Below, in pieces: positions 4,735-61,426 of a stretch of 64,000 nt of DNA. Every line of letters begins with the position of its first letter. Position 1 is the first letter of the stretch. The translations under genes and the position numbers were made by a program. Below the pieces are notes generated by a model. The model ran no database searches. It was not told the origin of the DNA and saw only the letters and a program-made list of their open reading frames with translations. Location: contig JAKLIQ010000002.1 of assembly GCA_022709525.1 (NCBI GenBank), positions 128,984-192,983 of the forward strand, read 5' to 3'. Source of the DNA: Candidatus Omnitrophota bacterium. Its GTDB lineage: Bacteria > Omnitrophota > Omnitrophia > Omnitrophales > Aquincolibacteriaceae.

Positions 4735-7197
4735 CTATGTTGCTTTTTCAAAAGAGATCCTCTCGCCTCGGATCTCCGCGCGGATCTTATCCCCCTCCTG
4801 GAATTTTCCGCCCAGGATCTCTTCGGCCAGAACGTTCTCGATATAACGCTGGATCGTCCGCTTGAGCGGCCGGGCTCCGAAGACGGGGTCGTAGCCGTGA
4901 TCGATGAGAAACTTCAGGACCTCATCGGAGAGGATCAGTTCCATTTTCTTGTCCTTGAGACGGTCCTGCACCTCTTTAAGCTCGATGTGGATGATCTGCT
5001 CGAGGTCCTGGCGCGTCAGCGGATGAAAGACGATCGTATCATCCACGCGATTCAAGAATTCCGGCCGGAAGACCTTTTTGGTCTCATCCAAAAGTTTCTG
5101 CTTCAGAACGTCGTAGTTCATTTCGTCTTTTTTCGGCGCAAAACCCAGGTCTCCTTGTTTGCGAATGAGATCGGCTCCGACGTTGGAGGTCATGATCACG
5201 ATCGTGTTGCGAAAATCCACCTTCCGCCCGAACGAATCCGTCAGGCGCCCTTCTTCCATGAGCTGAAGGAGGATATTGAAGACATCGGGATGCGCTTTCT
5301 CGATCTCATCCAACAGTACCACTGAATACGGCCGGCGGCGCACTTTCTCGGTAAGCTGCCCTCCTTCCTCATAGCCCACGTAACCGGGAGGCGCCCCAAC
5401 CAGGCGCGATACGTTGAATTTTTCGCCATATTCGGAGCAATCCACCACGACGACCGCGTCTTCATCGCCGAACATAAAATCAGCGAGCGCGCGGGCCAGA
5501 AGCGTTTTCCCGACCCCTGTGGGACCTAAGAAAATGAAAGAACCGATCGGCCGCCGCGGATTGCGGAGCCCCGAGCGTGAACGGCGGACTGCGTGCGCTA
5601 TGGCACGGATCGCTTCATCCTGACCGATGATCTTTTTGTGCAACTCCTCTTCCATTTTAAGAAGGCGCGCCGTCTCTTTTTCCTCAAGGCGCGCGAGCGG
5701 TACTCCTGTCCATTTAGAAACCACAAACGCGATGTCTTCCTCGGTCACCTGCACTTCAACCTCGGATTTGGACTCTTTCCAGCTTTTTTTCATCCGCTGA
5801 AGCTCTTCCTTGGCTTTGCGTTCGTCATCGCGCATCTTGGCCGCTTTTTCAAAATCCTGGGCCTTGATCGATGCCTCTTTTTCGCGGCGCAGGGCCTCGA
5901 TCTCGGATTCCGCTTTTTTGAGGTCTTTCGGCATTGTGGTCACGGAAAGCCGCGCGCGGGAAGCGGCCTCATCGATAATATCGATCGCTTTATCCGGCAG
6001 AAAACGGCCGGAGATATAGCGGTCCGAAAGCTTCGCCGCCGCTTCAAGCGCCTCATCGAGGATCTTCACCCGGTGATGGGCCTCGTACTTATCGCGCAAC
6101 CCTTTCAGGATCTGGATCGTGTCATCTACAGAAGGCGGGTCGACGACCACAGTCTGGAAACGGCGGGCAAGGGCCGCGTCCTTTTCGATGTATTTCCGGT
6201 ATTCATCAAGCGTGGTGGCGCCGATGCACTGGATCTCGCCGCGGGAAAGAGAGGGTTTAAGGATATTGGAAGCGTCGATCGCGCCCTCCGCGCCGCCCGC
6301 CCCGACCAGGGTATGCAATTCATCGATAAAGATCATGACATTTTCCGTGCGGCGGATCTCATCCATCACGGCCTTGATGCGTTCTTCGAACTGTCCGCGG
6401 TATTTCGTTCCGGCCACCATCAACGCAAGGTCGAGCACGACGATACGCTTATCGGCCAAGATCTCGGGGACATCGCCCGCAATGATCTTTTGCGCAAGAC
6501 CTTCCACGATCGCGGTTTTTCCAACGCCTGCTTCGCCTAAAAGCACGGGGTTATTCTTCGTGCGACGCGCGAGAATCTGGATCACACGCTCGATCTCATC
6601 CTGACGACCCACGACGGGATCGAGCTTTCCATCGCGCGCTAATTGCGAAAGATCCCGCCCAAAAGCATCCAGCGCCGGCGTCTTTGTTTTGGCTTTGCTT
6701 CCGGCACCGGGCCCGGCCGGACCGGCCTGCGAACCACCACCCGGTTCGCCGCCCGGGGTCGTGGAACCCAGAAGTTTGATCACTTCGGCGCGCACTTTAT
6801 TGAGGTCAAGCCCGACGTTCATCAGCACATGACTTGCGACGCCTTCACCTTCCTTGATAAGACCTAGGAGCAAGTGTTCCGTTCCGATATAGTTATGGCC
6901 CAAGCGACGCGCCTCGTCCATAGCAAGCTCGATCACCTTCTTAGCCTTGGGCGTGAAAGGAATATCCCCGGAAACGACCGTGCTTGGCCCGAACTGGACA
7001 AGTTTTTCCACTTCCAGGCGGATCGTATCAAGCGAAAGCCCGAGATTTTGAAGCACTGCGGCGGCGACGCTTTCCCCCTCCTTGATCAGCCCGAGCAGGA
7101 TATGCTCTGTTCCGATGTAGTCGTGATTGAACCTTTTGGCTTCTTCCTTGGCGAGAATGATGACTTTCCTGGCTCTTTCAGTAAAACGATCGAACAT
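4735..7197 (-). CDS. clpC: ATP-dependent Clp protease ATP-binding subunit ClpC (two Clp_N repeats, two AAA+ modules, UVR linker)
   Basis: The N-terminus carries repeated motifs GTEHILLGL and GTEHLLLGL. Two Walker A motifs are present (GEAGVGKT and GPTGVGKT). A UVR-like linker reads [12 protein letters not shown]. Confidence 0.9.
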
Positions 7198-15165: not shown

Positions 15166-16311
15166 ATGCAGATCTTGGCAACAGCGATCACGGGTTTACT
15201 TTTTTTCCTTCTGGCGGGATGGATCTACCGCAGCGGACGGGCGCTCTCCGAACTCAAACAGGCCCCCGCGTTAAAATTGAAATTGCCGGTATCCCGCACC
15301 GGAAGAGTTTCTGTCCTGATCCCGGCGAAAAATGAAGAAAAAAATATCGCGGATTGCGTCCGGCCTTTTCTCTCCCAGCTGCACGAGGGCGATGAGATCC
15401 TCGTGATCAATAACTACTCGGAAGACAGGACGGAAACGATCCTCCGGGAACTTGGCGCCGATGAGATCCTGCCCGACGGTTCCGGACGGAATTTAAAATT
15501 CCGCTACCTTAACACCCCCCAAACCCCTGAAGGATGGACCGGCAAGAATTTTGCGCTCCATCTCGGAACCCAGTGCGCCTCGGGCGACTGGTTTTTTTTC
15601 ACCGACGCCGACACCCGCCATGAACCCGGAAGCGTTGATACCGCTCTCGCGTTCGCGGAAGCCCGTCAGCTCGATCTTTTGACGCTCTTGCCGCGCTGCA
15701 TCACGGGAAGTTTCTGGGAAGATGTGATCCAACCTTGCGCGATGGGCTATATGGGGCTCTGGTTCCCGATCCGCAAGGTCAATGACCCCGCATCCAAAGC
15801 GTATTTCGGGAACGGACAATACCTGCTCATCCGCGCGGACCATTACCGAAAGATCGGCGGGCATGCCGCGGTCAAGGACGCTTTTCTTGAAGATTTTGCG
15901 CTCATGAAAAAAACGAAGGAGACCGGGGCGTGGGGCATGTGCGCATTCGGCATGGAGATCTACGGCACACGCATGTACGATTCTTTTGATGCCCTTTGGC
16001 GCGGCTGGCGCCGCATCTTTCTGCATGCGTTCGAGCAAAAACCGTGGCCCATCCTGCGACGCGCGCTAAGCGTTTTTTTGTTTTCGCTTTTTCCCGCGTT
16101 AGCCCTGCTCACCCTGCCGCACGGCCTTTCGCTTTCGCTTTGCCTTTTGATCCTTGCGATCGTTTTCGCAACAGCCGCCAAAACGCACGCGATCGTCAAA
16201 GCCAAGAAACGCTACGCGCTCCTTCACCCACTGGCGGCGCTCGTCTTCACGGGGATCCTTCTCGACGCTTTCCGCATGGCCATTCTCAAGCACCCGACCC
16301 GCTGGCGTTAA
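15166..16311 (+). CDS. Family 2 glycosyltransferase (membrane-anchored, GT-A fold)
   Basis: An N-terminal TM helix is followed by motifs VLIPAKNEE and DADT and a C-terminal polytopic region. The gene converges on the lipid operon. Confidence 0.7.
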   Translation: MQILATAITGLLFFLLAGWIYRSGRALSELKQAPALKLKLPVSRTGRVSVLIPAKNEEKNIADCVRPFLSQLHEGDEILVINNYSEDRTETILRELGADEILPDGSGRNLKFRYLNTPQTPEGWTGKNFALHLGTQCASGDWFFFTDADTRHEPGSVDTALAFAEARQLDLLTLLPRCITGSFWEDVIQPCAMGYMGLWFPIRKVNDPASKAYFGNGQYLLIRADHYRKIGGHAAVKDAFLEDFALMKKTKETGAWGMCAFGMEIYGTRMYDSFDALWRGWRRIFLHAFEQKPWPILRRALSVFLFSLFPALALLTLPHGLSLSLCLLILAIVFATAAKTHAIVKAKKRYALLHPLAALVFTGILLDAFRMAILKHPTRWR

Positions 16312-22723: not shown

Positions 22724-22842
22724 GAATCTTTTTTGATGCCAACCTCCGTCCCCGGTTTATCCTTTTTCCTTCCGATTTCATTTGATATCTGCTATCTTAC
22801 CCACCATCCTGGCTTTTGTTTTCATATCATTAATGGCTGCCA

Positions 22843-22889
22843 GGATGACCCCAATTTCAACTTCATTAAAATTGAAAGGTATTGGGACC
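22843..22889 (+). promoter_or_regulatory. Copy C of a conserved ~48-nt element ending exactly at the fabL-like ATG
   Basis: Read as GGATGACCCCAATTTCAACTTCATTAAAATTGAAAGGTATTGGGACC, followed directly by ATG. See findings for the three-copy comparison. Confidence 0.6.
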
Positions 22890-23648
22890 ATGACGAATCC
22901 GCTGAAAGGCAAAGTCGCTCTCATTACAGGGGCTTCCCGGGGCATCGGACGAGCCATCGCCCACCGCTTGGCCGAAGACGGTGTTCATATTGCGGTCAAT
23001 TATCTTCAGAATGAAGCGGCCGCGAAAAAGACCGTTGAAGAGCTCCAGGCCAAGGGCGTCAAAGCCGAGGCCTTCCAGGCGAATGTCGGTGATCTCGATA
23101 CTCACAATCCCCTGCTTGAAAATGTCCTCAAAACCTTCGGAACGCTGGATATCCTGATCCACAACGCGGCGCTCGGCGCTTTCAAGCCTGTTCATCGCCT
23201 TAAGATGAACCAGTGGGATCTTTCCATGGATATCAACGCTAAAGCGTTCCTGGCGCTTACTCAAAAAGCGCTTCCGATCATGGAAGCGAAAAAGGAAGGC
23301 ATCATCATCGCTCTCTCAAGTCTGGGCGCGCACCATTTTATCCCCAACTACGGTGCTATCGGGATCTCCAAAGCCGCGATCGAAACCACGGTCCGCTATC
23401 TCGGCGTGGAATTAATGCCGAAGGGCATCAGGGTGAACGCGGTTTCAGGCGGGCTCGTCGATACGGATGCGTTGAAATCATTCCCGTTTTTTGACGCTTT
23501 TAAGGAAGAGGTTTTAAAGCGGACTCCCGCCGGAAGGATCGGAAAACCCGAGGATATGGCCCGCGTGGTCGCGTTCCTTTGCTCCCCGGAATCGTCCTGG
23601 ATCGTCGGCCAAACCCTCATCGCCGACGGCGGACTTTCCCTCATCTAA
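22890..23648 (+). CDS. fabL: FabL/FabI-type enoyl-ACP reductase (SDR with Y-x6-K)
   Basis: The nucleotide-binding motif GASRGIGRA is present. IPNYGAIGISKAAIETTVRYLG resembles FabI [22 protein letters not shown]. The start was chosen at the ATG that has the conserved upstream element. Confidence 0.75.
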   Translation: MTNPLKGKVALITGASRGIGRAIAHRLAEDGVHIAVNYLQNEAAAKKTVEELQAKGVKAEAFQANVGDLDTHNPLLENVLKTFGTLDILIHNAALGAFKPVHRLKMNQWDLSMDINAKAFLALTQKALPIMEAKKEGIIIALSSLGAHHFIPNYGAIGISKAAIETTVRYLGVELMPKGIRVNAVSGGLVDTDALKSFPFFDAFKEEVLKRTPAGRIGKPEDMARVVAFLCSPESSWIVGQTLIADGGLSLI

Positions 23649-29757: not shown

Positions 29758-29921
29758 GGAACACCTCCTACGATACTGCTTGCCGTCCACATTCAGGTGT
29801 AAACCAAACGAAAACGCCCAACTTCCGACATCTCTAACGACGGCATTATCCTATCCTGACTTTTGTTTTTTTTCAACAGAAGGTAGTCAAGACGGTCATC
29901 AGCCGTTCCATGCTTGACCTT

Positions 29922-30254: not shown

Positions 30255-30330
30255 GGTGGGCGTAGCTCAATTTGGTTAGAGCACAAGATTGTGGATCTTG
30301 GGGTTGCGGGTTCAATTCCCGTCGCCCACC
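30255..30330 (+). tRNA. tRNA-His (anticodon GTG) with encoded G-1
   Basis: Cloverleaf read by eye as GGTGGGCGTAGCTCAATTTGGTTAGAGCACAAGATTGTGGATCTTGGGGTTGCGGGTTCAATTCCCGTCGCCCACC. Confidence 0.85.
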
Positions 30331-37980: not shown

Positions 37981-40900
37981 TTAGAGGCCGAAGTATTTCG
38001 CCTGAGGGTGATGCGCGATGATCGCCGAGGTGGACTGCTCGGGGACCATTTGAAAGGTTTCGCTCAACGTGATCCCGATCTTCTGCGCGGGCAGGACTTC
38101 GAAGAGCTTTTTCTGGTCTTCGAGATGAGGGCAGGCCGGATAGCCAAAACTGTAACGCGACCCCTGGTATTTTTGCCGAAAGATCTCTTCTTTGGTCTTC
38201 TTGTCTTGATGACTGATCCCCATATCCCGGCGGATCATAAGATGCGTATATTCGGCCAAGGCCTCGGTCGCTTCCACGGAAAATCCGTGAAGATAAAGAT
38301 ATTCCGTATACTTGTTGGCCCGGAAAAGTTTTTGCTCCGTCTCGGAAGCGCGACGCCCCATGGTCACGGCCTGGAACGCCACCACATCCGGTTCGCCGCC
38401 CTTCGGCCTGAAAAAATCCGCGATGCATTGATAGGGTTCCCTTGTCTGACGCGGGAACTTGAAACGGGTCAACTCGTTCGTCCCTGAACCGTCCAGGATC
38501 ACCAATTCGTCATTCTCGGAATAACAATGGAAAAACCCATAGATGACGCGGGGTTCAAGAAGCTTTTCGCGGATCGTCTTTGCCTTGAACTGTTCAAAAA
38601 TGGGTTCCACATTCTCCTGGAGAAAAAGCTCGAATTCCCGGGGCGTCCTTTCCCCTTGTTTGAACTGCCACTGGGCCCGGAAAAGCGCCGTCTTATTGAT
38701 CCAGCCAAACAGATCCTGAAGCCGGATATTTTTGATGATCCGGTAGCCGTAGAACGGGACCTTCGGGATCGGATTATCGCGGTGAACGTGAAACAGGGGG
38801 CCGGATGAACGCTTCGCGGTCCCGCTTGACGGTTTTTCGGAAGAGGATCTTCGCGGATTCCGGGGTGTTGGGATCTCCTCCAAAACAGGAGAAGCTGTTT
38901 TCGGGCCTATTTCTTTTTTGATCCCCTCCATGATCTTTAACCCGGAAAAAGCGTCCCGGCCGTAATGCACGGGACCCTGATAGGCCTTGGCGAGATCTCC
39001 TTCCACATAACGTTCGGTCAGGGCGGCGCCACCGCAGATCACCGGAAGCTTGACCCCGCGCCGGGCCATTTCCTCAAGATCCTCCTTCATGATCAAGGTG
39101 GATTTGACAAGAAGGCCGGAAAGGCCGATGGCGTCGGCCCGGTTTTCAAGCGCGGCCTTAACGATCGCGTCGACCGGCTGCTTGATGCCGATGTTGAACA
39201 CCTTGTAACCGTTATTCGTGAGGATGATATCCACGAGGTTCTTTCCGATATCATGAACATCGCCTTTCACGGTCGCGAGCACGATACGCCCGCGCTCCTG
39301 GCCTTCTTTCTTTTCCATGAACCGCTCAAGATAAGCCACGGCTTTTTTCATGACTTCGGCTGATTGCAACACAAAAGGAAGCTGCATTTTACCGGCGCCG
39401 AAGAATTCTCCAACTTGTTTCATGCCGTCGAGAAGAAACCGGTTGATGATCTCGAGCGGTTTGTATTTTTGAAGCGCCTCATCAAGATGGGCTTCCAGGC
39501 CTTCCGCGCTGCCTTCGATGATGTGACGCTTTAAAACCTCTTCGATCGCCCCTTGAACGGTGCCGCCTCCCTGCCCCTGCGGGATCCCTTGTTTTTTCTC
39601 AAAATGTGCGATGAATTCCTGAAGAGGATCTTTGCCGTCGACCCATTTGTTGTGAAGCAGGCGCCTTGCCGCCTCAAGGTCTTCCGGCTCGATCTTGAAA
39701 AGCGGCACGATCTTTTTGGCGTGAACGATCGCCGCGTCAAGGCCGGCCTTGACACATTCATCGAGAAAAACACTGTTGAGGATCTGCCGCGCGCGCGGCG
39801 CGAGTCCAAAGGAAATATTGCTCACGCCGAGGATCGTGTGAACGCCCGGCAAATCCCGCTTGAGCCGCCGGATCGCTTCGATCGTTTCCGGCGCCGCATT
39901 CCGGAACTCTTCGCTCCCGCTTCCGACCGTAAAGGTCAGGAGATCGAAGAAAAGGTCTTCCGAGCGGATACCGTACTGCTGGGTCACGATCTGATGGATG
40001 CGTTTGGCGATGCGAAGCTTTTCATCCCGTGTTTTCGCCATGCCTTTTTCGTCGATCGTAAGAACGACCAGCCCCGCGCCATAGCGTTTCGCCATCGGGC
40101 AGATCTTGCGCAAACGTTCGCCCCCGTCTTCCAGATTGATCGAGTTGATGATGGGCTTGCCCGCGATCCGCTTAAGCGCCTCTTCGATCACCGCCGGTTC
40201 GGTGGAATCGATCATGACGGGAACGGTCACGTGCTGGTTAAAACGGCTGACCGCCTCGATCATGTCCTTTTTCTCGTCCCGGCCAACATAAGCCACGCAA
40301 AGGTCCACAAGATGAGCGCCTTCCTTGACCGCTTCGCGCGCCACGCCGGTCATGGCGTCATAATCTTCGCGCTCCAAAATCTGTTTGAACTTTTTACTTC
40401 CGTTGGCGTTGGTCTGCTCCCCGACAAGAAGCGGCGGAGGTTTTTGACTGTAAGCGGCAATGCCGTAGAGACTCGCGCAAGCGGGCTCATGTTTAGGCGT
40501 CCGCTGTTTGGGCGCACAGGACCCGATCTTTTCGACAACCGCTTTTAGATGTTCGGGAGTAGTCCCGCAACACCCGCCGACGATCGAAACGCCGAATTCT
40601 CTGACAAAACGTTCGATGTGGGAGGCGAATTCTTCCGGAGGAAGTTTGTAGTGAGCGACGCCGCCGATATTTTCCGGAAGGCCGGCATTCGGAAGCACGG
40701 AAATATTCTTTGAAGAGTTTTCGCAGAAAAAACGCACGAGTTCGCTCATCTCCGAGGGGCCGGTCGCGCAATTGATCCCGATCACGTTCACCGGGAACAT
40801 CTCGAGCGTGGCGATCACGGAAGTAACATCCGTTCCAAGGAGCATGGTGCCGCTGGATTCAAAAGTCACTTGAGCGATCAAAGGCAATTTCTTTCCGGTT

Positions 40901-41436
40901 TCCCTGAAAAGCTCTTCCGCGGCGATGATCGCGATCTTGGCCTGAAGGAGGTCTTGGCAGGTTTCGATGATGATGCCGTCCACGCCGCCGGCCATGAGGC
41001 CCCTGCATTGTTCTTTGTAGGCGTTTTTCAGCTCATCGAAACCGATGTGGCCAAGTGAGGGAAGTTTTGTTCCGGGACCGACGGAGCCCAGCACGAAACG
41101 GGGGTGATCGGGCGTGGCATATTTTTGCGCAGCTTCCCGGGCGAGCTTGGCAGCCGCTTCATTGATCTCAAGCACGCGATCTTCCAACCCGTATTCGGCA
41201 AGAACGATCCGGTTCGCCCCGAAAGTATCGGTTTCGACAGCGTCGCATCCGACCGCGAGAAAACTTTCGTGGACGCTCCTGACGGCATCGGGCTTGGTAA
41301 TGACCAGATATTCATTGCAGCCGTCCTTACCTCCGAAATCCTGGGGCGTAAGGTTAAGCTTTTGGAGATTGGTGCCGAGCGCCCCGTCAAGAACAAGGAC
41401 CTTCTCATGGAGTCGTTTTAAAAATGGGTGTGCCAT
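37981..41436 (-). CDS. metH: Cobalamin-dependent methionine synthase MetH (Hcy-binding, pterin-binding, B12-binding and activation domains)
   Basis: The B12-binding motif DVHDIGKN is present. Start set at the ATG at 41436 (MAHPFLKRL...); the ORF track's TTG at 41454 lies inside the conserved upstream element. Confidence 0.9.
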   Translation of the reverse strand: MAHPFLKRLHEKVLVLDGALGTNLQKLNLTPQDFGGKDGCNEYLVITKPDAVRSVHESFLAVGCDAVETDTFGANRIVLAEYGLEDRVLEINEAAAKLAREAAQKYATPDHPRFVLGSVGPGTKLPSLGHIGFDELKNAYKEQCRGLMAGGVDGIIIETCQDLLQAKIAIIAAEELFRETGKKLPLIAQVTFESSGTMLLGTDVTSVIATLEMFPVNVIGINCATGPSEMSELVRFFCENSSKNISVLPNAGLPENIGGVAHYKLPPEEFASHIERFVREFGVSIVGGCCGTTPEHLKAVVEKIGSCAPKQRTPKHEPACASLYGIAAYSQKPPPLLVGEQTNANGSKKFKQILEREDYDAMTGVAREAVKEGAHLVDLCVAYVGRDEKKDMIEAVSRFNQHVTVPVMIDSTEPAVIEEALKRIAGKPIINSINLEDGGERLRKICPMAKRYGAGLVVLTIDEKGMAKTRDEKLRIAKRIHQIVTQQYGIRSEDLFFDLLTFTVGSGSEEFRNAAPETIEAIRRLKRDLPGVHTILGVSNISFGLAPRARQILNSVFLDECVKAGLDAAIVHAKKIVPLFKIEPEDLEAARRLLHNKWVDGKDPLQEFIAHFEKKQGIPQGQGGGTVQGAIEEVLKRHIIEGSAEGLEAHLDEALQKYKPLEIINRFLLDGMKQVGEFFGAGKMQLPFVLQSAEVMKKAVAYLERFMEKKEGQERGRIVLATVKGDVHDIGKNLVDIILTNNGYKVFNIGIKQPVDAIVKAALENRADAIGLSGLLVKSTLIMKEDLEEMARRGVKLPVICGGAALTERYVEGDLAKAYQGPVHYGRDAFSGLKIMEGIKKEIGPKTASPVLEEIPTPRNPRRSSSEKPSSGTAKRSSGPLFHVHRDNPIPKVPFYGYRIIKNIRLQDLFGWINKTALFRAQWQFKQGERTPREFELFLQENVEPIFEQFKAKTIREKLLEPRVIYGFFHCYSENDELVILDGSGTNELTRFKFPRQTREPYQCIADFFRPKGGEPDVVAFQAVTMGRRASETEQKLFRANKYTEYLYLHGFSVEATEALAEYTHLMIRRDMGISHQDKKTKEEIFRQKYQGSRYSFGYPACPHLEDQKKLFEVLPAQKIGITLSETFQMVPEQSTSAIIAHHPQAKYFGL

Positions 41437-41484
41437 AGTCCCAATACCTTTCAATTTTTACGAAGTAGAAATTGGGGCGATCCC
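41437..41484 (-). promoter_or_regulatory. Copy B of the conserved ~48-nt element ending exactly at the metH ATG
   Basis: The minus strand reads GGGATCGCCCCAATTTCTACTTCGTAAAAATTGAAAGGTATTGGGACT, followed directly by ATG. Confidence 0.6.
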
Positions 41485-41673
41485 AACCACCCTCTATGTA
41501 AAGAAATTCAGGTTGGGATAGAAAAAATATTCTATCACGGGAAATGAAAAACAGGAAAGAAGGAAGAATTCCCGTTTTCGGAACGGGAAAATCAAGCGCC
41601 CTGATGAATCTGTTATTTGCTAAATGGATCATCAGGACTGCATTGATTTCCCGATTCTTTTCTCTATGGAAAA

Positions 41674-43116
41674 TCAAGCGGGGTGAAAGAAGGCGTAAAT
41701 GCGGGCGGCCGTCCCTCGTTCGATCCCCGGAACGGCGCAAAGCTCGTCGATGCCGGCCTTTCGGATCTCATCGATCGAATTAAAATGACGCAGCAGGATC
41801 TTTTTCCGCCTCTCCCCGATCCCGGGGATATCGTCAAGCATCGAACGCTCCAACGACCTTGATTTGAGCTTTCGGTGGTAAGTGATCGCGAAGCGGTGCG
41901 CTTCATCACGGATCTTTTTCAGGAGATAGAGCGCCGGGGAATCCGAGGGGATCACGAGCGGATCCTTCCATTTCAAAGCATGGACCCATTCGAATTGCTT
42001 GGCGATGGCGATCAGCTCCATGGACTCCATCCCTTCCCGCACAAGGGCCTTGGCGGCGGTATTCAAATGCCCCCTGCCTCCGTCGATCATGATCAGATCG
42101 GGCGCAAAATCCTCCCGGCCCTCTTTGATGGCACGCAGCATGCGCGTCAGCGCCTCGGCGATCATGGCATAATCATTGATCCCCGAGACGCCTTTGATCT
42201 TGTAGCGACGGTACCCGAATTTATCGGGAAGTTCGCGATAAAAACTCACTTTGGACGCCACGGCTTCCTCGCCCTGGACATTGGAAACGTCAAAACATAC
42301 GATCCTCTCGGGTATTCTTGAGAGCTTAAGGCGCTGTTTGAGCTCCAAAGTCGCCGAAAGCGATATGCCCTGCCCGGGATTCTTGGGAAGAAACCTTTTT
42401 CTCTTGAGTTTGGATAGAGCTTCCAACTGTTCTTTGAAGAATTGCGCGTCCTCAAAACGTAATTCCCGGCTGGCCTTTTCCATGCGTTCTTCAAGGTATT
42501 CCGCAAAACTTTTTTTGCGGGCGCCGAGAAAGCGTTTGATCTCGCGGATCAGCCGGTCGTATTCGGGTTTGACCTCCGGTTGGATGCAGGGAGCTATGCA
42601 TTGCTTCAAGTGATAATAAAGACAGGCCGTTTTGGGAAGCGTCTGGCATTTTCTTATCGGAAAAAGCCCGTGGAGGAGATCCGCGGCCTGGCGCAACAGC
42701 TTTGCGTCCGTGTAAGGCCCGTAATAATCGGCTTTGCGGTCTGTTTTCTGCCTTGTCACGCAAAGGCGGGGAAATTTTTCACGGGTGATCTTAAGGAGCG
42801 GAAAACTTTTATCATCTTTGAGCTCTTGATTGTACTTCGGCTGGCATTTGCGCACGAGGTGGGCTTCCAAAAGCAGGGCGTCCATCTCGGTCGGGGTGTC
42901 GATGTGGTCGATTGCGCGCACCTGACGCATGAGAACGGCGACCTTGGGGATCGGCGCTGGGATTTTGAAATAGCTACGGACTCTTTTGCGAAGCGATTTG
43001 GCTTTGCCGATATAGAGGATCTTCCCGCCGGCATCACGCATAAGATAAACGCCGGGCGTCGAAGGAAGGGCTCCGGCGCTCTGTCGAAGGTTTTTAAAAG
43101 GATCGACGGTTTTCAT
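41674..43116 (-). CDS. uvrC: Excinuclease ABC subunit C (GIY-YIG N-terminus, C-terminal HhH)
   Basis: The GIY-YIG region reads PGVYLMRDAGGKILYIGKAKSLRKRVRSYF. The C-terminal HhH reads IPGIGERRKKIL. Confidence 0.8.
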   Translation of the reverse strand: MKTVDPFKNLRQSAGALPSTPGVYLMRDAGGKILYIGKAKSLRKRVRSYFKIPAPIPKVAVLMRQVRAIDHIDTPTEMDALLLEAHLVRKCQPKYNQELKDDKSFPLLKITREKFPRLCVTRQKTDRKADYYGPYTDAKLLRQAADLLHGLFPIRKCQTLPKTACLYYHLKQCIAPCIQPEVKPEYDRLIREIKRFLGARKKSFAEYLEERMEKASRELRFEDAQFFKEQLEALSKLKRKRFLPKNPGQGISLSATLELKQRLKLSRIPERIVCFDVSNVQGEEAVASKVSFYRELPDKFGYRRYKIKGVSGINDYAMIAEALTRMLRAIKEGREDFAPDLIMIDGGRGHLNTAAKALVREGMESMELIAIAKQFEWVHALKWKDPLVIPSDSPALYLLKKIRDEAHRFAITYHRKLKSRSLERSMLDDIPGIGERRKKILLRHFNSIDEIRKAGIDELCAVPGIERGTAARIYAFFHPA

Positions 43117-49839: not shown

Positions 49840-52152
49840 CTACGGATATAAATAAGTTCCGAGGGCGCCTTTTAGAAAAGATATGACCTCAAGCCGGGAG
49901 CCGGCGCTCCGGAAACTCAGGGCTCCCGTATTTCCCAAGTCAAAAAAAGGAATGCCACGGGATATCAAACGATCCGCCAGAAGCGGCTGCCAGAGAGGCG
50001 AAACGACAAGAAGGGGTCTTGCGAGACCGAGCCACTCGAAGAACTCATCCGGGATCGCTTCGGATGACTTCGGGGAAGGCAGGAAAACCGCGTGGATCTC
50101 TCCCCCGTCTTTATGTTGGGATAATTCTTCCCAAAGTGCTCTCTCCCAGCGTGACGCGACCAGGATCCGCCAAGGGCCTGCAATGACCGTGAAGGCGATG
50201 CCTTTGGGAGACTGCGCTGCCACGCGTATCTTTTCCCCTCCCATCCGCACTTCATCGTCTTTTCCGATCACGTCAGATTTTTTATGGATCCGGCGCAGCA
50301 TGGCGAGAAAATGATCCGGAACATACCCGCATCCTTTCGGGTGAAGAAGGATTGGAAAAGAAAAGCTTCGAGCGATCGAAACAAGGCCTCCCGTATTCGT
50401 TTTGGAAAGATCGCTCAGGACGATCCCTTCCAGACTGCGAGCCCCGAAGCTTCTCAGGTAGGGAACGGCGAGCCACTCGCCTTGATCGGAAGGAAAGCTC
50501 CGGCCGGCATTCAAAAACCATTCGGCGCCATTCGAAAATCGCATATGCGCCAGCTGGTTCCGGCCGGCTGCGAGAGCCGTAAATTCAAATCCGCGTTCCC
50601 TGAAGTTCATAAAAAAAGAAACAGAAACGCAAAGCCATGCGCACCCGAGGAGACCGATCCAAACATGCTTTCCGCGCAACGGTTTTTTCCATAAAAAAAG
50701 AATACCGGCTAAAATCGCGTAATAGCTCCAGAGCTTCGTTTGCGGCGGCCGTTCCAGAAACCAGTATCCCCACTGCCATTGAGCAAGAGAAGCAATCCAC
50801 ATCAGCGACATTTGGATCATCCACGAGGAAACGGTCGCAAGAAAAAGCCCCGCGAAGGGAATGCCGGAAAAAAGGATCGCCAACAGCGCCGTAAACAGCG
50901 CCGCATCACACAAGGGAATGGCCACAATGTTCGCAAGAATGCTGACGGGAGAGAAAATATTGAAATAATAAAGCGCGAGCGGGAATGTTCCCGCAAGGAC
51001 CGCCAGACTCGAACCCAGGGAAAGCGTCCATGCGTTCATGCGTGAAAAAATGGGGAGGATGAGGATCAGGGAAAGAACGCAAAGGAAAGAAAGCTGGAAT
51101 CCGACACCCCAAAGAGCGCTCGGGTTCCAAAGCAATATGATAAAAAAGGCGAAACAAAGCGAATTGAGAAGATGCGCCGGCCTCCCGGCTAGTACCGCAA
51201 GAAGCGCCAACGCGGCGCCGCATCCCGCGCGTTGGATCGGCACGCCCGCGCCGGAAAAACCGATATAAAAAAGCACTACCAAAATAGCCAGCATGGACGC
51301 CTGACGGTATCCCAATCCGGAAAAAAGAAAGAGGATGTAGAGCGTCCCGGCGATCATGGTGATATTCATGCCGCTGATCGCCAAAAGATGGATCGTCCCC
51401 GTTCTCATAAATTGATCCCGGACCTCCGAAGCCACATCGCCGCGAAGCCCCAGGACAAGCGCTTTAACGATCGCGGCTTCCTGCGGCTTGTTATAAAGCC
51501 GGTCGATCAGGGCCGCGGAATGACGACGGGTTTCAGCAATAATCCTCGCCGGAACCCACCAATTCCCCGCCTTGATCAATCGAACGCTTCGTTTGCCGAT
51601 CGCGCGAAAAACCGCCCGGACATCTTTTTGCGCCAAAAAATCCGCGTAATCAAATTCGCCGGGATTCAAGGCGCGCTTCGGCACGCTCAGTTCTCCAAAA
51701 ATACGGATCTGATCGCCGACCTTCGGAATCAAGGATGGCTGCAGCAAGAATACTTGGACATACCCGGAAACTTCGTGGAGCTTCCGGGTACCATTCTTTT
51801 TCAGGAGAATTGATCGCGCCTTGAGAATAAATCCGACGTTTACCCGTTTCCCCCGGGTCCGGACCTCCGGCAAGGAATGGACGATCCCTTCGAGACTCGC
51901 GCGGGACGGATCGGTGAATTGCTCGACCGCGCGCTCAGGGATCCGTGCGTCAAGCTTCGCACACAAACTTCCGGCGCAGACAAGGCAGCTGATAAAAAGC
52001 GGCATAAAAAACTTCGAGCTGCGCAAACACCAAAGAAGGGCCGATCCGAAGACTAAAACGCTCAACGACGCAGCGGCCGGAACCGGCCCATACCGCTCGG
52101 CGATGATCCCTAGCGCAAATCCGGACCCGATCCAAAAGAAAGGAAGTTTCAT
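49840..52152 (-). CDS. comEC: ComEC/Rec2 family DNA-uptake channel protein
   Basis: A DUF4131-like N-terminus and competence domain are present (HLLAISGMNITMIAG). Confidence 0.8.
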   Translation of the reverse strand: MKLPFFWIGSGFALGIIAERYGPVPAAASLSVLVFGSALLWCLRSSKFFMPLFISCLVCAGSLCAKLDARIPERAVEQFTDPSRASLEGIVHSLPEVRTRGKRVNVGFILKARSILLKKNGTRKLHEVSGYVQVFLLQPSLIPKVGDQIRIFGELSVPKRALNPGEFDYADFLAQKDVRAVFRAIGKRSVRLIKAGNWWVPARIIAETRRHSAALIDRLYNKPQEAAIVKALVLGLRGDVASEVRDQFMRTGTIHLLAISGMNITMIAGTLYILFLFSGLGYRQASMLAILVVLFYIGFSGAGVPIQRAGCGAALALLAVLAGRPAHLLNSLCFAFFIILLWNPSALWGVGFQLSFLCVLSLILILPIFSRMNAWTLSLGSSLAVLAGTFPLALYYFNIFSPVSILANIVAIPLCDAALFTALLAILFSGIPFAGLFLATVSSWMIQMSLMWIASLAQWQWGYWFLERPPQTKLWSYYAILAGILFLWKKPLRGKHVWIGLLGCAWLCVSVSFFMNFRERGFEFTALAAGRNQLAHMRFSNGAEWFLNAGRSFPSDQGEWLAVPYLRSFGARSLEGIVLSDLSKTNTGGLVSIARSFSFPILLHPKGCGYVPDHFLAMLRRIHKKSDVIGKDDEVRMGGEKIRVAAQSPKGIAFTVIAGPWRILVASRWERALWEELSQHKDGGEIHAVFLPSPKSSEAIPDEFFEWLGLARPLLVVSPLWQPLLADRLISRGIPFFDLGNTGALSFRSAGSRLEVISFLKGALGTYLYP

Positions 52153-55756: not shown

Positions 55757-58208
55757 CCGCCACCACGAGATTGACCGTTCGCCCCGGAACCACAATGATT
55801 TTTTTAAGGACTTTTCCGGCCAGCATTTCTTTCACACGGGGCTGCTCTAGCGCCAGCTGCTTGATCTCTTCTTCGTCCTGACTACGAGAAACGACCATTT
55901 TAGCCCGGACTTTACCGCCCACAAGGATCGCCAGTTCGGCCTGATCCTCCACAAGATACAGCTCATCATACTCGGGCCATTTTTCATAAGCAAGCGTCTT
56001 CGCATGTCCCAAACGCTGCCATAACTCCTCGGCCAGATGCGGGGCAAAAGGCGCCAAAAGAAGCACGAATTTTTCAAGCGCTTCCCTCGCGTGATCCTGC
56101 TCCTGCGCGGCTTCGTTGACAAAGATCATAAGAGCCGAGATCGCTGTGTTGAATCTCAGGCCCTCCAGGTCTTCGGTCACTTTTTTGATCGTCTTATGAA
56201 GCGTCTTCAACTCCGCCGTGTTGGCCGGACGCTGAACGATATTAGCGTGAAGCTTTTCATCTTTATCGATAAAAAGCCGCCATGCTTTCCCGAGAAACCG
56301 GTAAACGCCTTCGACGCCCGAGTTCGCCCAAGGTTTGGTCATTTCAAGCGGGCCCATGAACATTTCGTAGAGACGGAGACTGTCGGCGCCGTATTGCGCG
56401 ATCATCTCGTCGGGATTGACGACATTGCCGCGCGATTTGGACATTTTCTGATTGTCCTCGCCCAAGATCATGCCCTGGTTCGTGAGTTTTTGGAAAGGCT
56501 CTTTGGTGGAAACGAAACCGAGATCATAAAGCACTTTGTGCCAGAACCTGGCATAGAGAAGATGCAGCACGGCATGTTCGGCGCCGCCCACATAAAGATC
56601 GACATTCATCCAATATTTCTCTTTTTGAGGATCGACCAGGGCTTTTGCGTTCTTCGGGTCTAAATAACGAAGATAATACCAACAGGAACCCGCCCATTGC
56701 GGCATGGTGTTCGTTTCCCGCACGGCCTTGCCGCCGCATTTCGGACATTTGCAGGCAAGCCACTCCTCAGCTTTAGCAAGCGGCGGTTCAGCATTACCCG
56801 CCGGCGTGTAATCTTTCATTTCGGGAAGTTGGAGCGGCAACTCTTTTTCCGGTATGAGCACCGGCCCGCATTTTGAACAATGGACGACCGGGATCGGTTC
56901 TCCCCAATAACGTTGGCGGCTGAAAAGCCAGTCCCGAAGCTTATATTGCACTGCCTCTTTTCCGATCTTTCTTTCCTCAAGCCATTGCGTGATCTTTTTC
57001 TTCGCTTCCGGCGTTGGAAGCCCGGTAATGAGCCCGGAGTTCACGCTGACACCATCCCCGACGAAACCGATCGAATCCTTCCCGTCCGGCGCTTGAACGA
57101 CCACCTCGACGGGCAAACGATACGCCCGGGCAAATTCAAGATCGCGCGTATCGTGCCCAGGCACGGCCATGATCGCGCCGGTCCCGTACCCCATAAGGAC
57201 ATAATCTGCGATCCATACAGGGATCTTTTTATCGTTCACCGGATTGATGGCGTAGGCACCCGTAAAAACGCCTGTCTTTTTTTTGGCGAGATCGGTGCGG
57301 TCAAGGTCGGACTTGTGCGTCGCGGTAGCTACATATTCGTCTACGGCTTTTTTTTGAGCAGGCGCGGTGATCCTGGCCACAAGCGGATGCTCCGGCGCAA
57401 GAACCATATAAGTAGCGCCAAAAAGCGTATCCGGCCGTGTGGTAAAAACGGAGATCTCAGCTTTCAAATTTGAGATTTGAAATTTTACTTCCGCGCCGGT
57501 GGATTTCCCGATCCAGTTGCGCTGCATCTCTTTAATGGGTTCGGACCAATCCAGAAGCTCCAGATCTTTCAGAAGGCGTTCGGCATACGCTGTGATCTTC
57601 AGGATCCATTGCCGAAGCGGGCGTCGGTAAACATTTTTATGGCCCTTGCGCTCGCAAGTGCCGTCCGCATCCACCTCTTCATTGGCAAGCACAGCTTTGC
57701 AACCATCGCACCACCAAACGGGGATCTCGGCCTCATAGGCCAGGCCTTTTTCAAAAAGCTTCATAAAGATCCACTGGGTCCACCGGTAATAATGGGGATC
57801 GGTGGTATCAATTTCGCGATCCCAATCATAGCTGAAACCAACCTGTTGGATCTGACGTTTGAAGGTCTGGATGTTGTTTTGTGTGGTGTCGCGTGGGTGT
57901 GTGCCGGTTTCTATGGCGTATTGTTCGGCGGGAAGTCCGAAAGCGTCCCAGCCCATGGGGTGGAGAACGTTAAAACCGCGCATTCTTTTGTACCGGCTGA
58001 CGATGTCGGTCGCGGTATAGCCTTCCAGATGGCCGACATGGAGCCCTGATCCGGAGGGATAAGGGAACATGTCGAGAACATAATATTTTGGCTTTTCGCA
58101 ACCCGGCTCGCCGGGGTCGGGAGAGCGAAAGGTCTTACGGTCAGACCAATAGGTCTGCCATTTTTTCTCGATGACATCGAAAGGATAAGCTTTAAAGCCG
58201 CTGGCCAT
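55749..58208 (-). CDS. leuS: Leucine--tRNA ligase
   Basis: The HIGH motif reads HVGH. The KMSKS motif is present as KMSKS. Confidence 0.95.
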
Positions 58209-58323: not shown

Positions 58324-58399
58324 GGGCCGGTAGTTCAGTTGGTAGAACGCTACAATGGCATTGTAGAGGTCAGGGGTTCAACTCCCCTCCGGTCCACCA
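58324..58399 (+). tRNA. tRNA-Ala (anticodon GGC), G3:U70 pair, CCA encoded
   Basis: Read as GGGCCGGTAGTTCAGTTGGTAGAACGCTACAATGGCATTGTAGAGGTCAGGGGTTCAACTCCCCTCCGGTCCACCA. Confidence 0.85.
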
Positions 58400-58408
58400 T
58401 TTTTATTA

Positions 58409-58494
58409 GCGAGAGTGGCGGAACTGGCAGACGCACTGGACTCAAAATCCAGCGGTGCTCAAACACCATGAGGGTTCGACTCCCTCCTCTCGCA
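58409..58494 (+). tRNA. tRNA-Leu (anticodon CAA), type II with long variable arm
   Basis: Read as GCGAGAGTGGCGGAACTGGCAGACGCACTGGACTCAAAATCCAGCGGTGCTCAAACACCATGAGGGTTCGACTCCCTCCTCTCGCA. Confidence 0.85.
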
Positions 58495-61334: not shown

Positions 61335-61384
61335 TTAGTCCCAATTCCTATCAATTTCAGAGAATCTGAAATTGGGGCAATCCT
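61335..61384 (-). promoter_or_regulatory. Copy A of the conserved ~48-nt element in the 5' leader of the bactofilin-HTH gene
   Basis: The minus strand reads AAGGATTGCCCCAATTTCAGATTCTCTGAAATTGATAGGAATTGGGACTAAG. Confidence 0.6.
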
Positions 61385-61426
61385 TGTCAACCATTCGAGA
61401 AAAAAATACCAGACAAGGATGATTCA

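Follow-up and report, generated by a model that had tools for sequence, protein, structure and literature searches.

Rickettsia palindromic elements lie between genes and also in frame within unrelated housekeeping genes, to which they add a peptide segment (PMC10969869). Correia elements are often found just upstream of genes, where they become the leader of the mRNA and alter expression; they also carry promoters (PMC10969869). Here we describe a small repeat of Omnitrophota, one copy of which (copy B) stands at the start of the methionine synthase gene metH in a 64,000-nt stretch of DNA, hereafter the window, from Candidatus Omnitrophota bacterium (assembly GCA_022709525.1, contig JAKLIQ010000002.1, positions 128,984-192,983; coordinates below are those of the window). 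The comparisons below show that copy B is a member of a family of non-autonomous mobile repeats of about 86 nt, and that orthologous sites either have or lack this unit, with exact boundaries; both orientations are found, and the unit can sit in frame within genes. We propose, with a probability of about 0.75, that copy B inserted on the start of a leaderless-type metH gene and is now its leader, with a ribosome-binding site inside.

Copy B was delimited with a covariance model, R1, built from an alignment of copies, its boundaries being set from a conservation profile and from comparisons of filled and empty sites. The full element, a CTA followed by an inserted unit of 83 nt, occupies 41436..41521 on the minus strand (R1 match 41432-41527, 88.8 bits, E 4e-20). 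The 5' flanking CTA (41519..41521) is identical to the last three bases of the element, and is either a target-site duplication or the target itself. It is followed, all on the minus strand, by the 5' arm Sa of a stem named P0 (TCCCAACC, 41511..41518, pairing with 41481-41488), the T-rich loop of P0 (tgaatttctttacatagagg, 41491..41510), the 3' arm Sb together with the TCG directly 5' of the core (41478..41490), the core itself (CCCCAATTTC-TAC-TTC-GTA-AAAATTG-AAAGGT-ATTGGG, 41440..41477), which includes the core hairpin CCCAATTTC..GAAATTGAtAGGtATTGGG and the inner hairpin (41452-41474), and the 3' end Sc, ACTA (41436..41439), after which conservation ends sharply. The final base of the element, A41436, is at once the first base of the metH start codon ATG: the minus strand reads GGATCGCCCCAATTTCTACTTCGTAAAAATTGAAAGGTATTGGGACTA over 41436-41483, then the TG of that codon. 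This ATG (41434-41436; coding sequence 37981..41436, minus) is the true start of metH, whose homologues contain the Pfam domains S-methyl_trans and Pterin_bind, as the N-termini of MetH relatives, M(A/P)HPFL, correspond to it. The TTG start at 41454 given in the list of open reading frames (ORFs) falls within copy B and is an artefact, as the initial annotation had suspected. That annotation was also right in calling copy B non-coding, with conservation at the nucleotide level: read in the frame of the ATG it gives APISTS*KLKGIGTMAHP, the stop being a TAA at 41458-41460.

The window holds two other full copies. The pattern CCCAATTTC-N-AAATTG-N-ATTGGG matched three times, at 22850-22886 (plus), 41440-41476 (minus) and 61340-61376 (minus), and none of 100 dinucleotide-preserving shuffles of the window contained a match; a near-identical element ahead of the metH ATG, as first described, is thus real. 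A repeat search paired 41436-41483 with 61336-61383 at 79% identity. Copy A (22804..22890, plus, R1 84.7 bits) is fused to the start codon (ATG, 22890) of a gene for a short-chain dehydrogenase, with TGCTATCTT 7 nt before its 5' junction A. Copy C (61336..61422, minus, R1 88.9 bits) lies 40 nt upstream of the start (61296) of a bactofilin-like gene, which has its own AAAGGAGAG before the ATG. All three copies are oriented like their downstream gene, and the matches of copies A and B stop 3 nt before the ATG (GGGACC-ATG and GGGACT-ATG, respectively). Copy A translates as TPISTSLKLKGIGTMTNP (TPISTSLKLKGIGTM in the frame of its ATG) and copy C as APISDSLKLIGIGTK; the peptide likeness of the two, already pointed out in the initial annotation, exists and follows from their nucleotide identity. 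Apart from the three full copies, R1 found in the window only a solo module at 29851-29895 and a weak inverted match at 41590-41693.

A pattern scan of species-representative genomes gave at least 118 loci, referred to by L numbers, and the copy counts below rest on the matches listed. Nearly all listed loci belonged to Omnitrophota metagenome-assembled genomes (MAGs) or to unnamed MAGs, in 21 species-level assemblies. R1 gave 152 matches in 694 kb, including about 40 further copies missed by the pattern. The family comprises at least 150 copies in 21 Omnitrophota MAG species, with a density of roughly one copy per 17-21 kb in Omnitrophota genomes. When about 100 copies were aligned on the core, conservation was seen to begin some 45 nt upstream of CCCAAT and to stop abruptly after ACTA, which gives a unit of about 86 nt, nearly twice the 48 nt or so of the first description. 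The order of its parts is: trinucleotide, arm Sa (TCCTTGTC and variants), T-rich loop (mostly of 20-21 nt), arm Sb, which is the complement of Sa, N'N'GC, core, terminal trinucleotide. The core reads CCCAATTTC-NNN-loop-NNN-GAAATTGAtAGGtATTGGG-AC, and the two variable bases of the 5' end recur after it. The end trinucleotide is CTA in most copies, otherwise CCG, CTG, CAG, CCA or CGG.

Pairing is conserved in both hairpins. In P0, changes on both sides were found at 10 of 11 pairs, and 88.8% of the cells were paired, versus only 20-44% when the partners were slid by one to three columns. The inner hairpin showed covariation at three pairs, and core variants that fall outside the search pattern still pair (CAATC..GATTG, or CATCCCGCC..GGCGGGATG, which replaces the whole inner hairpin). 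Pairing was also seen between the element's final base and the variable base that precedes GC (columns 54/99; UA in 59 copies, CG in 39). More generally, the three nucleotides 5' of the core co-vary with both end trinucleotides, the outer positions being Watson-Crick and the middle one T.T, A.A, G-C or C-G. The two end trinucleotides were equal in 68 of 99 copies; when 3' ends were shuffled within the same internal-trinucleotide class (2000 shuffles), the mean number of equal ends was 59.8 and the maximum 66.

Evidence for movement comes from five independent comparisons of filled and empty orthologous sites between species, in addition to metH (window and L119 versus L120). The filled site of L104 reads CACTATAATGAACGCCCTA[TCC...GGGACTA]TGAGAACATGC, and the empty site of L063, in which the CTA is single, reads CACTATAATAACCGGCCTATGAAAACCTGT. 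Similarly, L076 reads TTTTCTA[...ACTA]AATGCCC, for empty sites TTTTTTAAATGCCC in L064 and GTTTTAAATGCCC in L068. The other pairs are L049 (filled) with L112 (empty), L070 (filled) with L103 (empty), where the site lies within a lipoprotein signal peptide, and L028 (filled) with L065 and L041 (both empty).

Genes around the copies were called by a codon-usage score, and the strands of the upstream and downstream genes are given relative to the element. Both were on the strand of the element for 43 copies and both on the opposite strand for 24; in 13 cases only the downstream gene, and in five only the upstream gene, was on the element's strand. The element faced its downstream gene about twice as often as not (66 vs 32), about a third of the copies were antisense to both neighbours, and the median distance was 40 nt to the downstream start versus 104 nt to the upstream gene. 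Copies were mostly intergenic, some 5-8% lying inside genes. At least five are inserted in frame and use three different reading frames of the element, in genes for an AddB homologue (L011), an AddA-like helicase-nuclease (L048), a histidine kinase (L047), a ThiH-type BATS domain (L072) and a 4Fe-4S dicluster protein (L118; Fer4); Pfam domains were found on either side of the insert or spanning it. In six cases the end of the copy coincides with the stop codon TAG of a gene on the other strand (gap -3), mirroring the ATG fusions. Since a CTA both precedes the unit and closes it, either codon, the ATG split after its A or the TAG, is restored. Where copies stand head-to-tail in tandem, the trinucleotide at their junction is common to both (L015, L053, L091, L096), as expected if the end of one copy is the target for the next. 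The genes adjoining the copies are functionally unrelated. Copy B is not a dedicated translation element, but one copy of a mobile family which is found also antisense between genes and in frame inside them.

How metH came to start on the last base of the repeat can be approached by comparison with its relatives. The closest MetH (L119, 95% identical) has the same arrangement as the window, and the next closest (L120, 69% identical) is without the element. Upstream of metH, L120 has GTCCCATGCTAGAATACCGAACTT-ATGCCGCATCCC; TCCCATGCTAGAAT-ACCGAACTT-ATG, that is TGCTAGAAT-N9-ATG, and the window and L119 have TCCC(G/A)TGATAGAAT-N9-A[element]TG. In the window, where the sequence just upstream of copy B is TTCCCGTGATAGAATATTTTTTCTA, TGATAGAAT (41529..41537, minus) is an extended -10-like box (TGnTAGAAT) placed 9 nt before A41519, and is the putative metH promoter. 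TCCCGTGATAGAATA and TCCCATGCTAGAATA are equal at 13 of 15 positions, TCCC-TG-TAGAATA being common to the window and L120; by our estimate, such a match would occur by chance about once per hundred comparisons of this kind. The spacing between the hexamer and an A is the same, 9 bases, this A being the A of ATG in L120 and A41519 in the window, and no Shine-Dalgarno sequence is present in the nine bases that separate hexamer and ATG in L120. The same geometry was found at an rpmB-like (L28-like) gene, with TATAAT-N9-ATG in L063 and TATAAT-N9-A[element]TG in L104. Leaderless mRNAs may be common in this organism, to judge from several long ORFs of the window in which a -10-like box stands 6-10 nt ahead of the ATG and a Shine-Dalgarno sequence is lacking (starts 58208, 52152, 15166 and 30347; the boxes are TGCTACAAT-N10-ATG at 58208, minus, TATAAT-N7-ATG at 52152, minus, and TATGAT-N9-ATG at 15166, plus).

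Because L120 has a -10 box 9 nt from its ATG and no Shine-Dalgarno sequence, we infer that an extended -10 promoter, placed some 9 nt ahead of the ATG, drove transcription of the ancestral metH, whose mRNA was leaderless or nearly so and without a Shine-Dalgarno site; its empty allele would have read TGATAGAAT-ATTTTTTCT-ATG. The element would have inserted after the CTA of CTA-TG, and its terminal ACTA would have rebuilt the start codon. The old promoter would now stand just upstream of copy B, with a transcription start at about 41519-41522, and the whole of copy B would form a structured 5' untranslated region of 83-86 nt. Copy B is probably transcribed, as had been assumed initially, given the conserved extended -10 box directly upstream. 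Translation of metH would then start internally, most likely with GAAAGG as a weak Shine-Dalgarno site 10 nt before the AUG.

This GAAAGG tract (41447..41452, minus) is separated from the A of the ATG by 10 nt, counted from its last G. The canonical Shine-Dalgarno sequence is UAAGGAGGU; AAGG lies 10 nt before the AUG, with an effective spacing of about 7 nt when aligned to it. To the 11 copies that are fused to an ATG opening an ORF of at least 60 codons, the start-fused copies, all others were compared. GAAAGG was present in nine of the 11, versus three of 107 others (Fisher p = 1.3e-9), the family consensus at this position being GATAGG or GATAAG. The nine copies come from at least seven independent loci and belong to different stem variants or subfamilies, and therefore the change has recurred or been selected more than once. 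This enrichment points to selection for a Shine-Dalgarno-like site, and backs the early suggestion that GAAAGG is the likely determinant of ribosome binding. Two other features distinguish the fused copies: an inner-hairpin base A that mismatches (C.A) and weakens the hairpin (8/11, versus 20/107 of the others), and a -10-like hexamer 4-10 nt before the 5' junction (6/11 versus 13/95). Such a pattern is expected if the element is part of the mRNA and ribosomes bind inside it, and the GAAAGG pattern is hard to explain if transcription began at the ATG. The idea that translation would need the CAATTTC/GAAATTG hairpin found no support; fused copies tend to carry the weakening C.A mismatch.

Several observations weigh against our proposal. 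The putative metH promoter is a consensus match only, and a scan for two-hexamer promoters found no -35/-10 pair there. Counted from the -10 hexamer, the A of the ancestral ATG would be the 10th nucleotide, a long distance for a start that is strictly leaderless. The contig of L120, 2 kb long, has a different upstream synteny, and the homology of its promoter rests on the 13/15 match. RNA folding predicts partial pairing of the GAAAGG region (fold versus shuffles, z = -1.9, a modest value). As to the mobile nature of the family, the search pattern that collected the copies accounts in part for the invariance of their core, terminal inverted repeats of about 10 bp or more are absent (the consensus ends share only TCC...GGA, and a terminal match of 6-7 nt, TCCCAAC/ATTGGGA, is found only in the subfamily that includes copy B), and a tblastn search with IS608 TnpA and the Escherichia coli REP-associated tyrosine transposase (RAYT; REP, repetitive extragenic palindrome) returned no match with E under 0.4 over some 1 Mb of DNA drawn from 21 genomes, a sample in which a single-copy RAYT gene could easily be missed. 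Finally, copies are well conserved: copy A and its L006 orthologue are about 92-95% identical, the adjoining coding sequence about 80%, and over 14 orthologous pairs identity was 93% in stems, 82-83% in loops and 70% in the 5' flank, the P0 loop being the least conserved part of the element (83%). This exceeds what a decaying selfish insert would show, and could reflect gene conversion among copies or a structural role at the level of the host.

We have weighed these data against three other accounts. If the repeat carried an outward promoter and its final base, which is also the A of the ATG, were the transcription start, fused genes would stay leaderless. Conservation that ends exactly at ACTA would fit, as would the last two positions, pyrimidine-purine like the -1/+1 of a start site, the preference for facing the downstream gene, and GGGA just upstream, which resembles a discriminator; Correia elements offer a precedent of promoter-bearing repeats (PMC10969869). 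However, the hexamer at -12..-7 is GGTATT, which has a G in place of the essential A at -11, and a -35 hexamer at 16-18 nt is missing; nor were sigma-70 -35/-10 hexamers at 16-18 nt found anywhere inside the element. The copies antisense to both neighbours and those inside ORFs are not as a promoter would have them, and the T-to-A change of fused copies falls at -14, where no promoter element is known, and improves the Shine-Dalgarno match. The sharp boundary is accounted for by the insertion junction, and we regard a promoter of the element's own as quite improbable. Promoters of the sigma-70, sigma-54 or extracytoplasmic function (ECF) type inside the element were also rejected for lack of hexamers at the right spacing, the GG-GC spacing being 11-12 nt and variable versus the 10 required for sigma-54. 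No more credit can be given to a cis-regulatory RNA leader of the host (a protein-binding site, thermosensor or riboswitch) whose regulon would include metH, transposition being secondary. The orthologous copies that are conserved above coding sequence, with stems above loops, the covariation of two stems, and the bias of copies to the 5' side of genes (medians of 40 vs 104 nt) are what such a leader would produce, but the neighbouring genes are functionally unrelated, 24 copies are antisense between co-directional genes and at least five lie inside ORFs in three frames. In P0, mismatches were G.T in 28 cases and A.C in 26, without strand preference, whereas selection on a sense RNA would favour G.U, so that this balance gives no support for selection on a sense-strand fold. 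An attempt to read the RNA strand from wobble pairs was abandoned: P0 is unbiased, and the bias of the inner hairpin is due to one variant, the A at the stem base. Rfam at its gathering score gave only tRNAs over the window and 20 loci, where also no known non-coding RNA gene directly follows the element, and an E-value scan at the site gave at best DUF2815 RNA with 18.1 bits, versus a gathering score of 41.2; a riboswitch or other known RNA was discarded on these scans, which returned only tRNAs and noise.

The last account, a static palindrome of REP or terminator type, or an integron attC-like site, that does not transpose, would explain the imperfect palindrome with its conserved mismatch and the GTAG that many copies carry within GGTAGTCAGGA. 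In attC sites, R'' and R' are RYYYAAC and GTTRRRY, which CCCCAAT/ATTGGGA resembles. This account is nevertheless very improbable, because presence or absence with exact boundaries shows insertion; moreover the GGTGACAAGGA and GGCGACTTGGA variants are without GTAG, copies are found inside genes, some 20 kb apart and adjoining housekeeping genes, and the crossover G of attC is an A here. Neither hairpin is followed by a run of T: the T-rich tract comes before the core hairpin, inside the P0 loop, which also disposes of an intrinsic terminator. A gene for a short peptide was considered as well, since sense frame 3 is open in the consensus, but it was rejected on account of the TAA of copy B, of stem indels that shift the reading frame between copies, and of covarying stem positions that change residues.

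Insertion of a mobile repeat thus remains the preferred reading of copy B, and the family offers some hints on how it moves. In IS608, a guide sequence 5' of the hairpin foot matches the cleavage sites at the element ends. Minimal terminal repeats, conserved hairpins, the T.T mismatch and the three-way co-variation of trinucleotides recall REP/RAYT and IS200/IS605 systems. The co-variation suggests that the target is chosen by base pairing, and a plain 3-bp target duplication fits as well; a DDE enzyme making such a duplication is possible. Orientation relative to GC skew, which over 8 kb is only a proxy for replication direction, revealed no replication-strand bias, the sense strand being G-rich in 48 of 90 loci; in the window the skew is nearly of one sign, yet copy A is on the plus strand and copies B and C, in the same replichore, on the minus strand. 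Nothing but housekeeping genes (ThrRS, a ROK kinase, LptF/G) lies between a solo P0 and a solo core paired at 1.6-4.5 kb. No copy of the element was found in IMG/VR, so that a phage origin is unsupported. With respect to the miniature transposable elements with inverted repeats known as MITEs, the units are likewise small, non-coding and dispersed, present or absent with exact boundaries, and flanked by equal trinucleotides (68/99), although these may be a guided target rather than a duplication made by a staggered cut.

Several observations on the family stand beside this analysis. About 36 solo P0 modules and 40 solo cores were counted across the loci. The P0 module is also seen with another type of core behind it (GCCCAATTAACCTTTGAATTTTTTGATGGAGAATTGGGC and relatives), in L051:6190-6286, L066:192-287 and L084:298-393, and also downstream of L011, L045, L079 and L007; the family is modular, with sub-types. 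The apparent orthologues L071:7257-7353 and L099:1937-2033 differ at 6 of 10 inner-hairpin positions and both pair (TGC..GCT versus GAC..GTC), which suggests either that changes compensated for one another in place or that a different copy took over the site. In L011, two inverted copies (4925-4961, plus, and 7154-7190, minus), one of them inside addB, are each followed by a similar stretch of about 60 nt, and enclose the addB start and a QueD-like gene. A short copy with a weak P0 (L103:1078-1174, minus) is flanked by a direct repeat of about 22 nt (TGCCAATTTCGCCACGGCC) instead of the usual 3 nt. A conserved non-coding stretch of about 320 nt (AGCGTGCCTCGTCTCAACCC...) directly follows the element up to a rubrerythrin gene (L041:2797-3110); it recurs in L028, L034, L065, L066, L073, L089 and L097, in at least four MAGs, and is without a match in Rfam. 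A structured leader is one possibility for it, a small RNA not yet described another. Chance matches to the search pattern in Bacillus and relatives, Mycobacterium, Moraxella, Burkholderiales and a cyanobacterium were set aside as unrelated; among them, a Bacillus-group hairpin CCCAATTTCTCAG(N)TTGAGAAATTGGG accounts for L002, L017, L022, L025, L026, L030, L056, L059, L088, L107 and L117.

In the window, the solo module at 29851..29895 (plus; R1 16.4 bits, E 0.031; nhmmer E 0.004) reads CTATCCTGACTTTTGTTTTTTTTCAACAGAAGGTAGTCAAGACGG and consists of the P0 stem and T-rich loop without a core. Upstream of metH lies uvrC (41674-43116, minus), named from the Pfam domains of the L119 neighbour, which is followed by a terminator-like hairpin (41569..41589, minus). 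The weak match at 41590..41693 (plus; R1 15.4 bits, E 0.055) is a possible degenerate inverted copy, with a P0-like stem CCTGATGA/TCATCAGG and a different hairpin; it overlaps the 3' end of uvrC, its loop ends in AAATGG, and the hairpin ATTGATTTCC..GGAAAATCAA comes next. Three tRNA genes (30256-30330, 58324-58396 and 58409-58494, plus) are the only matches of the window at the Rfam gathering score.

A more general proposal is that the whole family is a mobile 5' leader, a guide-directed element of the single-strand type that inserts between the A and TG of start codons and at TAG without destroying either codon, preferentially turns leaderless genes into leadered ones, and is kept by the host. 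We consider it rather unlikely in this wide form. If it were true, copies would bring, or quickly evolve, their own Shine-Dalgarno site and be kept as a shared structured leader, and transposition would have opened a path, active throughout the phylum, by which leaderless translation gives way to the Shine-Dalgarno-led kind. What appears unusual in the family is the precise insertion at start codons of probably leaderless genes and the subsequent appearance of a Shine-Dalgarno-like site. Start fusions would constitute a natural experiment, in which a leaderless gene gains a structured leader of 86 nt, and the recurrence of GAAAGG in independent fused copies is comparative evidence for selection on such a site. 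Omnitrophota are uncultured, and the family explains a recurrent, highly conserved sequence ahead of, after and within their genes. MAG annotation should mask or label it, since it gives rise to spurious ORF starts (the TTG at 41454 is one) and puts additional peptide segments into real proteins. The exact filled and empty sites are a ready marker for population studies at the strain level, and the co-variation between end and internal trinucleotides points to a possibly new mobilisation system with a guided target.

Our literature search found no paper linking Omnitrophota with such a repeat or with MITEs, and we rate the repeat as a previously undescribed small non-autonomous palindromic mobile repeat, closest in behaviour to Rickettsia palindromic elements because of its in-frame intragenic copies. 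Both are short palindromic repeats (about 100-150 bp in Rickettsia), dispersed in small genomes without a transposase of their own. The likeness, drawn from descriptions of the Rickettsia families, is functional only, a relationship in sequence not being expected, and the Omnitrophota unit differs in its phylum, its length of about 86 nt, its two hairpins, its matching end trinucleotides and its mostly intergenic location. With Correia elements (CREE/NEMIS) and MITEs it shares hundreds of small non-coding copies, presence or absence at given sites, a short TA-containing target duplication, and a frequent position just ahead of genes, where copies would become part of the mRNA leader. However, Correia elements have 26-bp terminal inverted repeats, sigma-70 promoters and an integration host factor (IHF) site, and are substrates of RNase III, whereas the Omnitrophota unit has only TCC..GGA ends, no promoter consensus, and a flanking trinucleotide that co-varies with an internal one. 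SAM, SAH and cobalamin (S-adenosylmethionine, S-adenosylhomocysteine and vitamin B12) riboswitches resemble copy B in position only, as structured elements directly upstream of metH; the Omnitrophota element has no Rfam match, precedes unrelated genes and lies inside ORFs. The likeness to REP/RAYT and IS200/IS605 (IS608, PATE) systems consists in pairing conserved over sequence, a stem mismatch, the lack of long terminal inverted repeats and head-to-tail tandem copies. In contrast to REP sequences, GTAG is found only in some stem variants, copies occur inside genes and doublets are head-to-tail, not inverted; and, unlike IS200/IS605, orientation does not follow the replication strand as judged from GC skew. 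As in IS608, a short sequence 5' of the hairpin foot matches the element ends, a feature compatible with this family and not specific to it.

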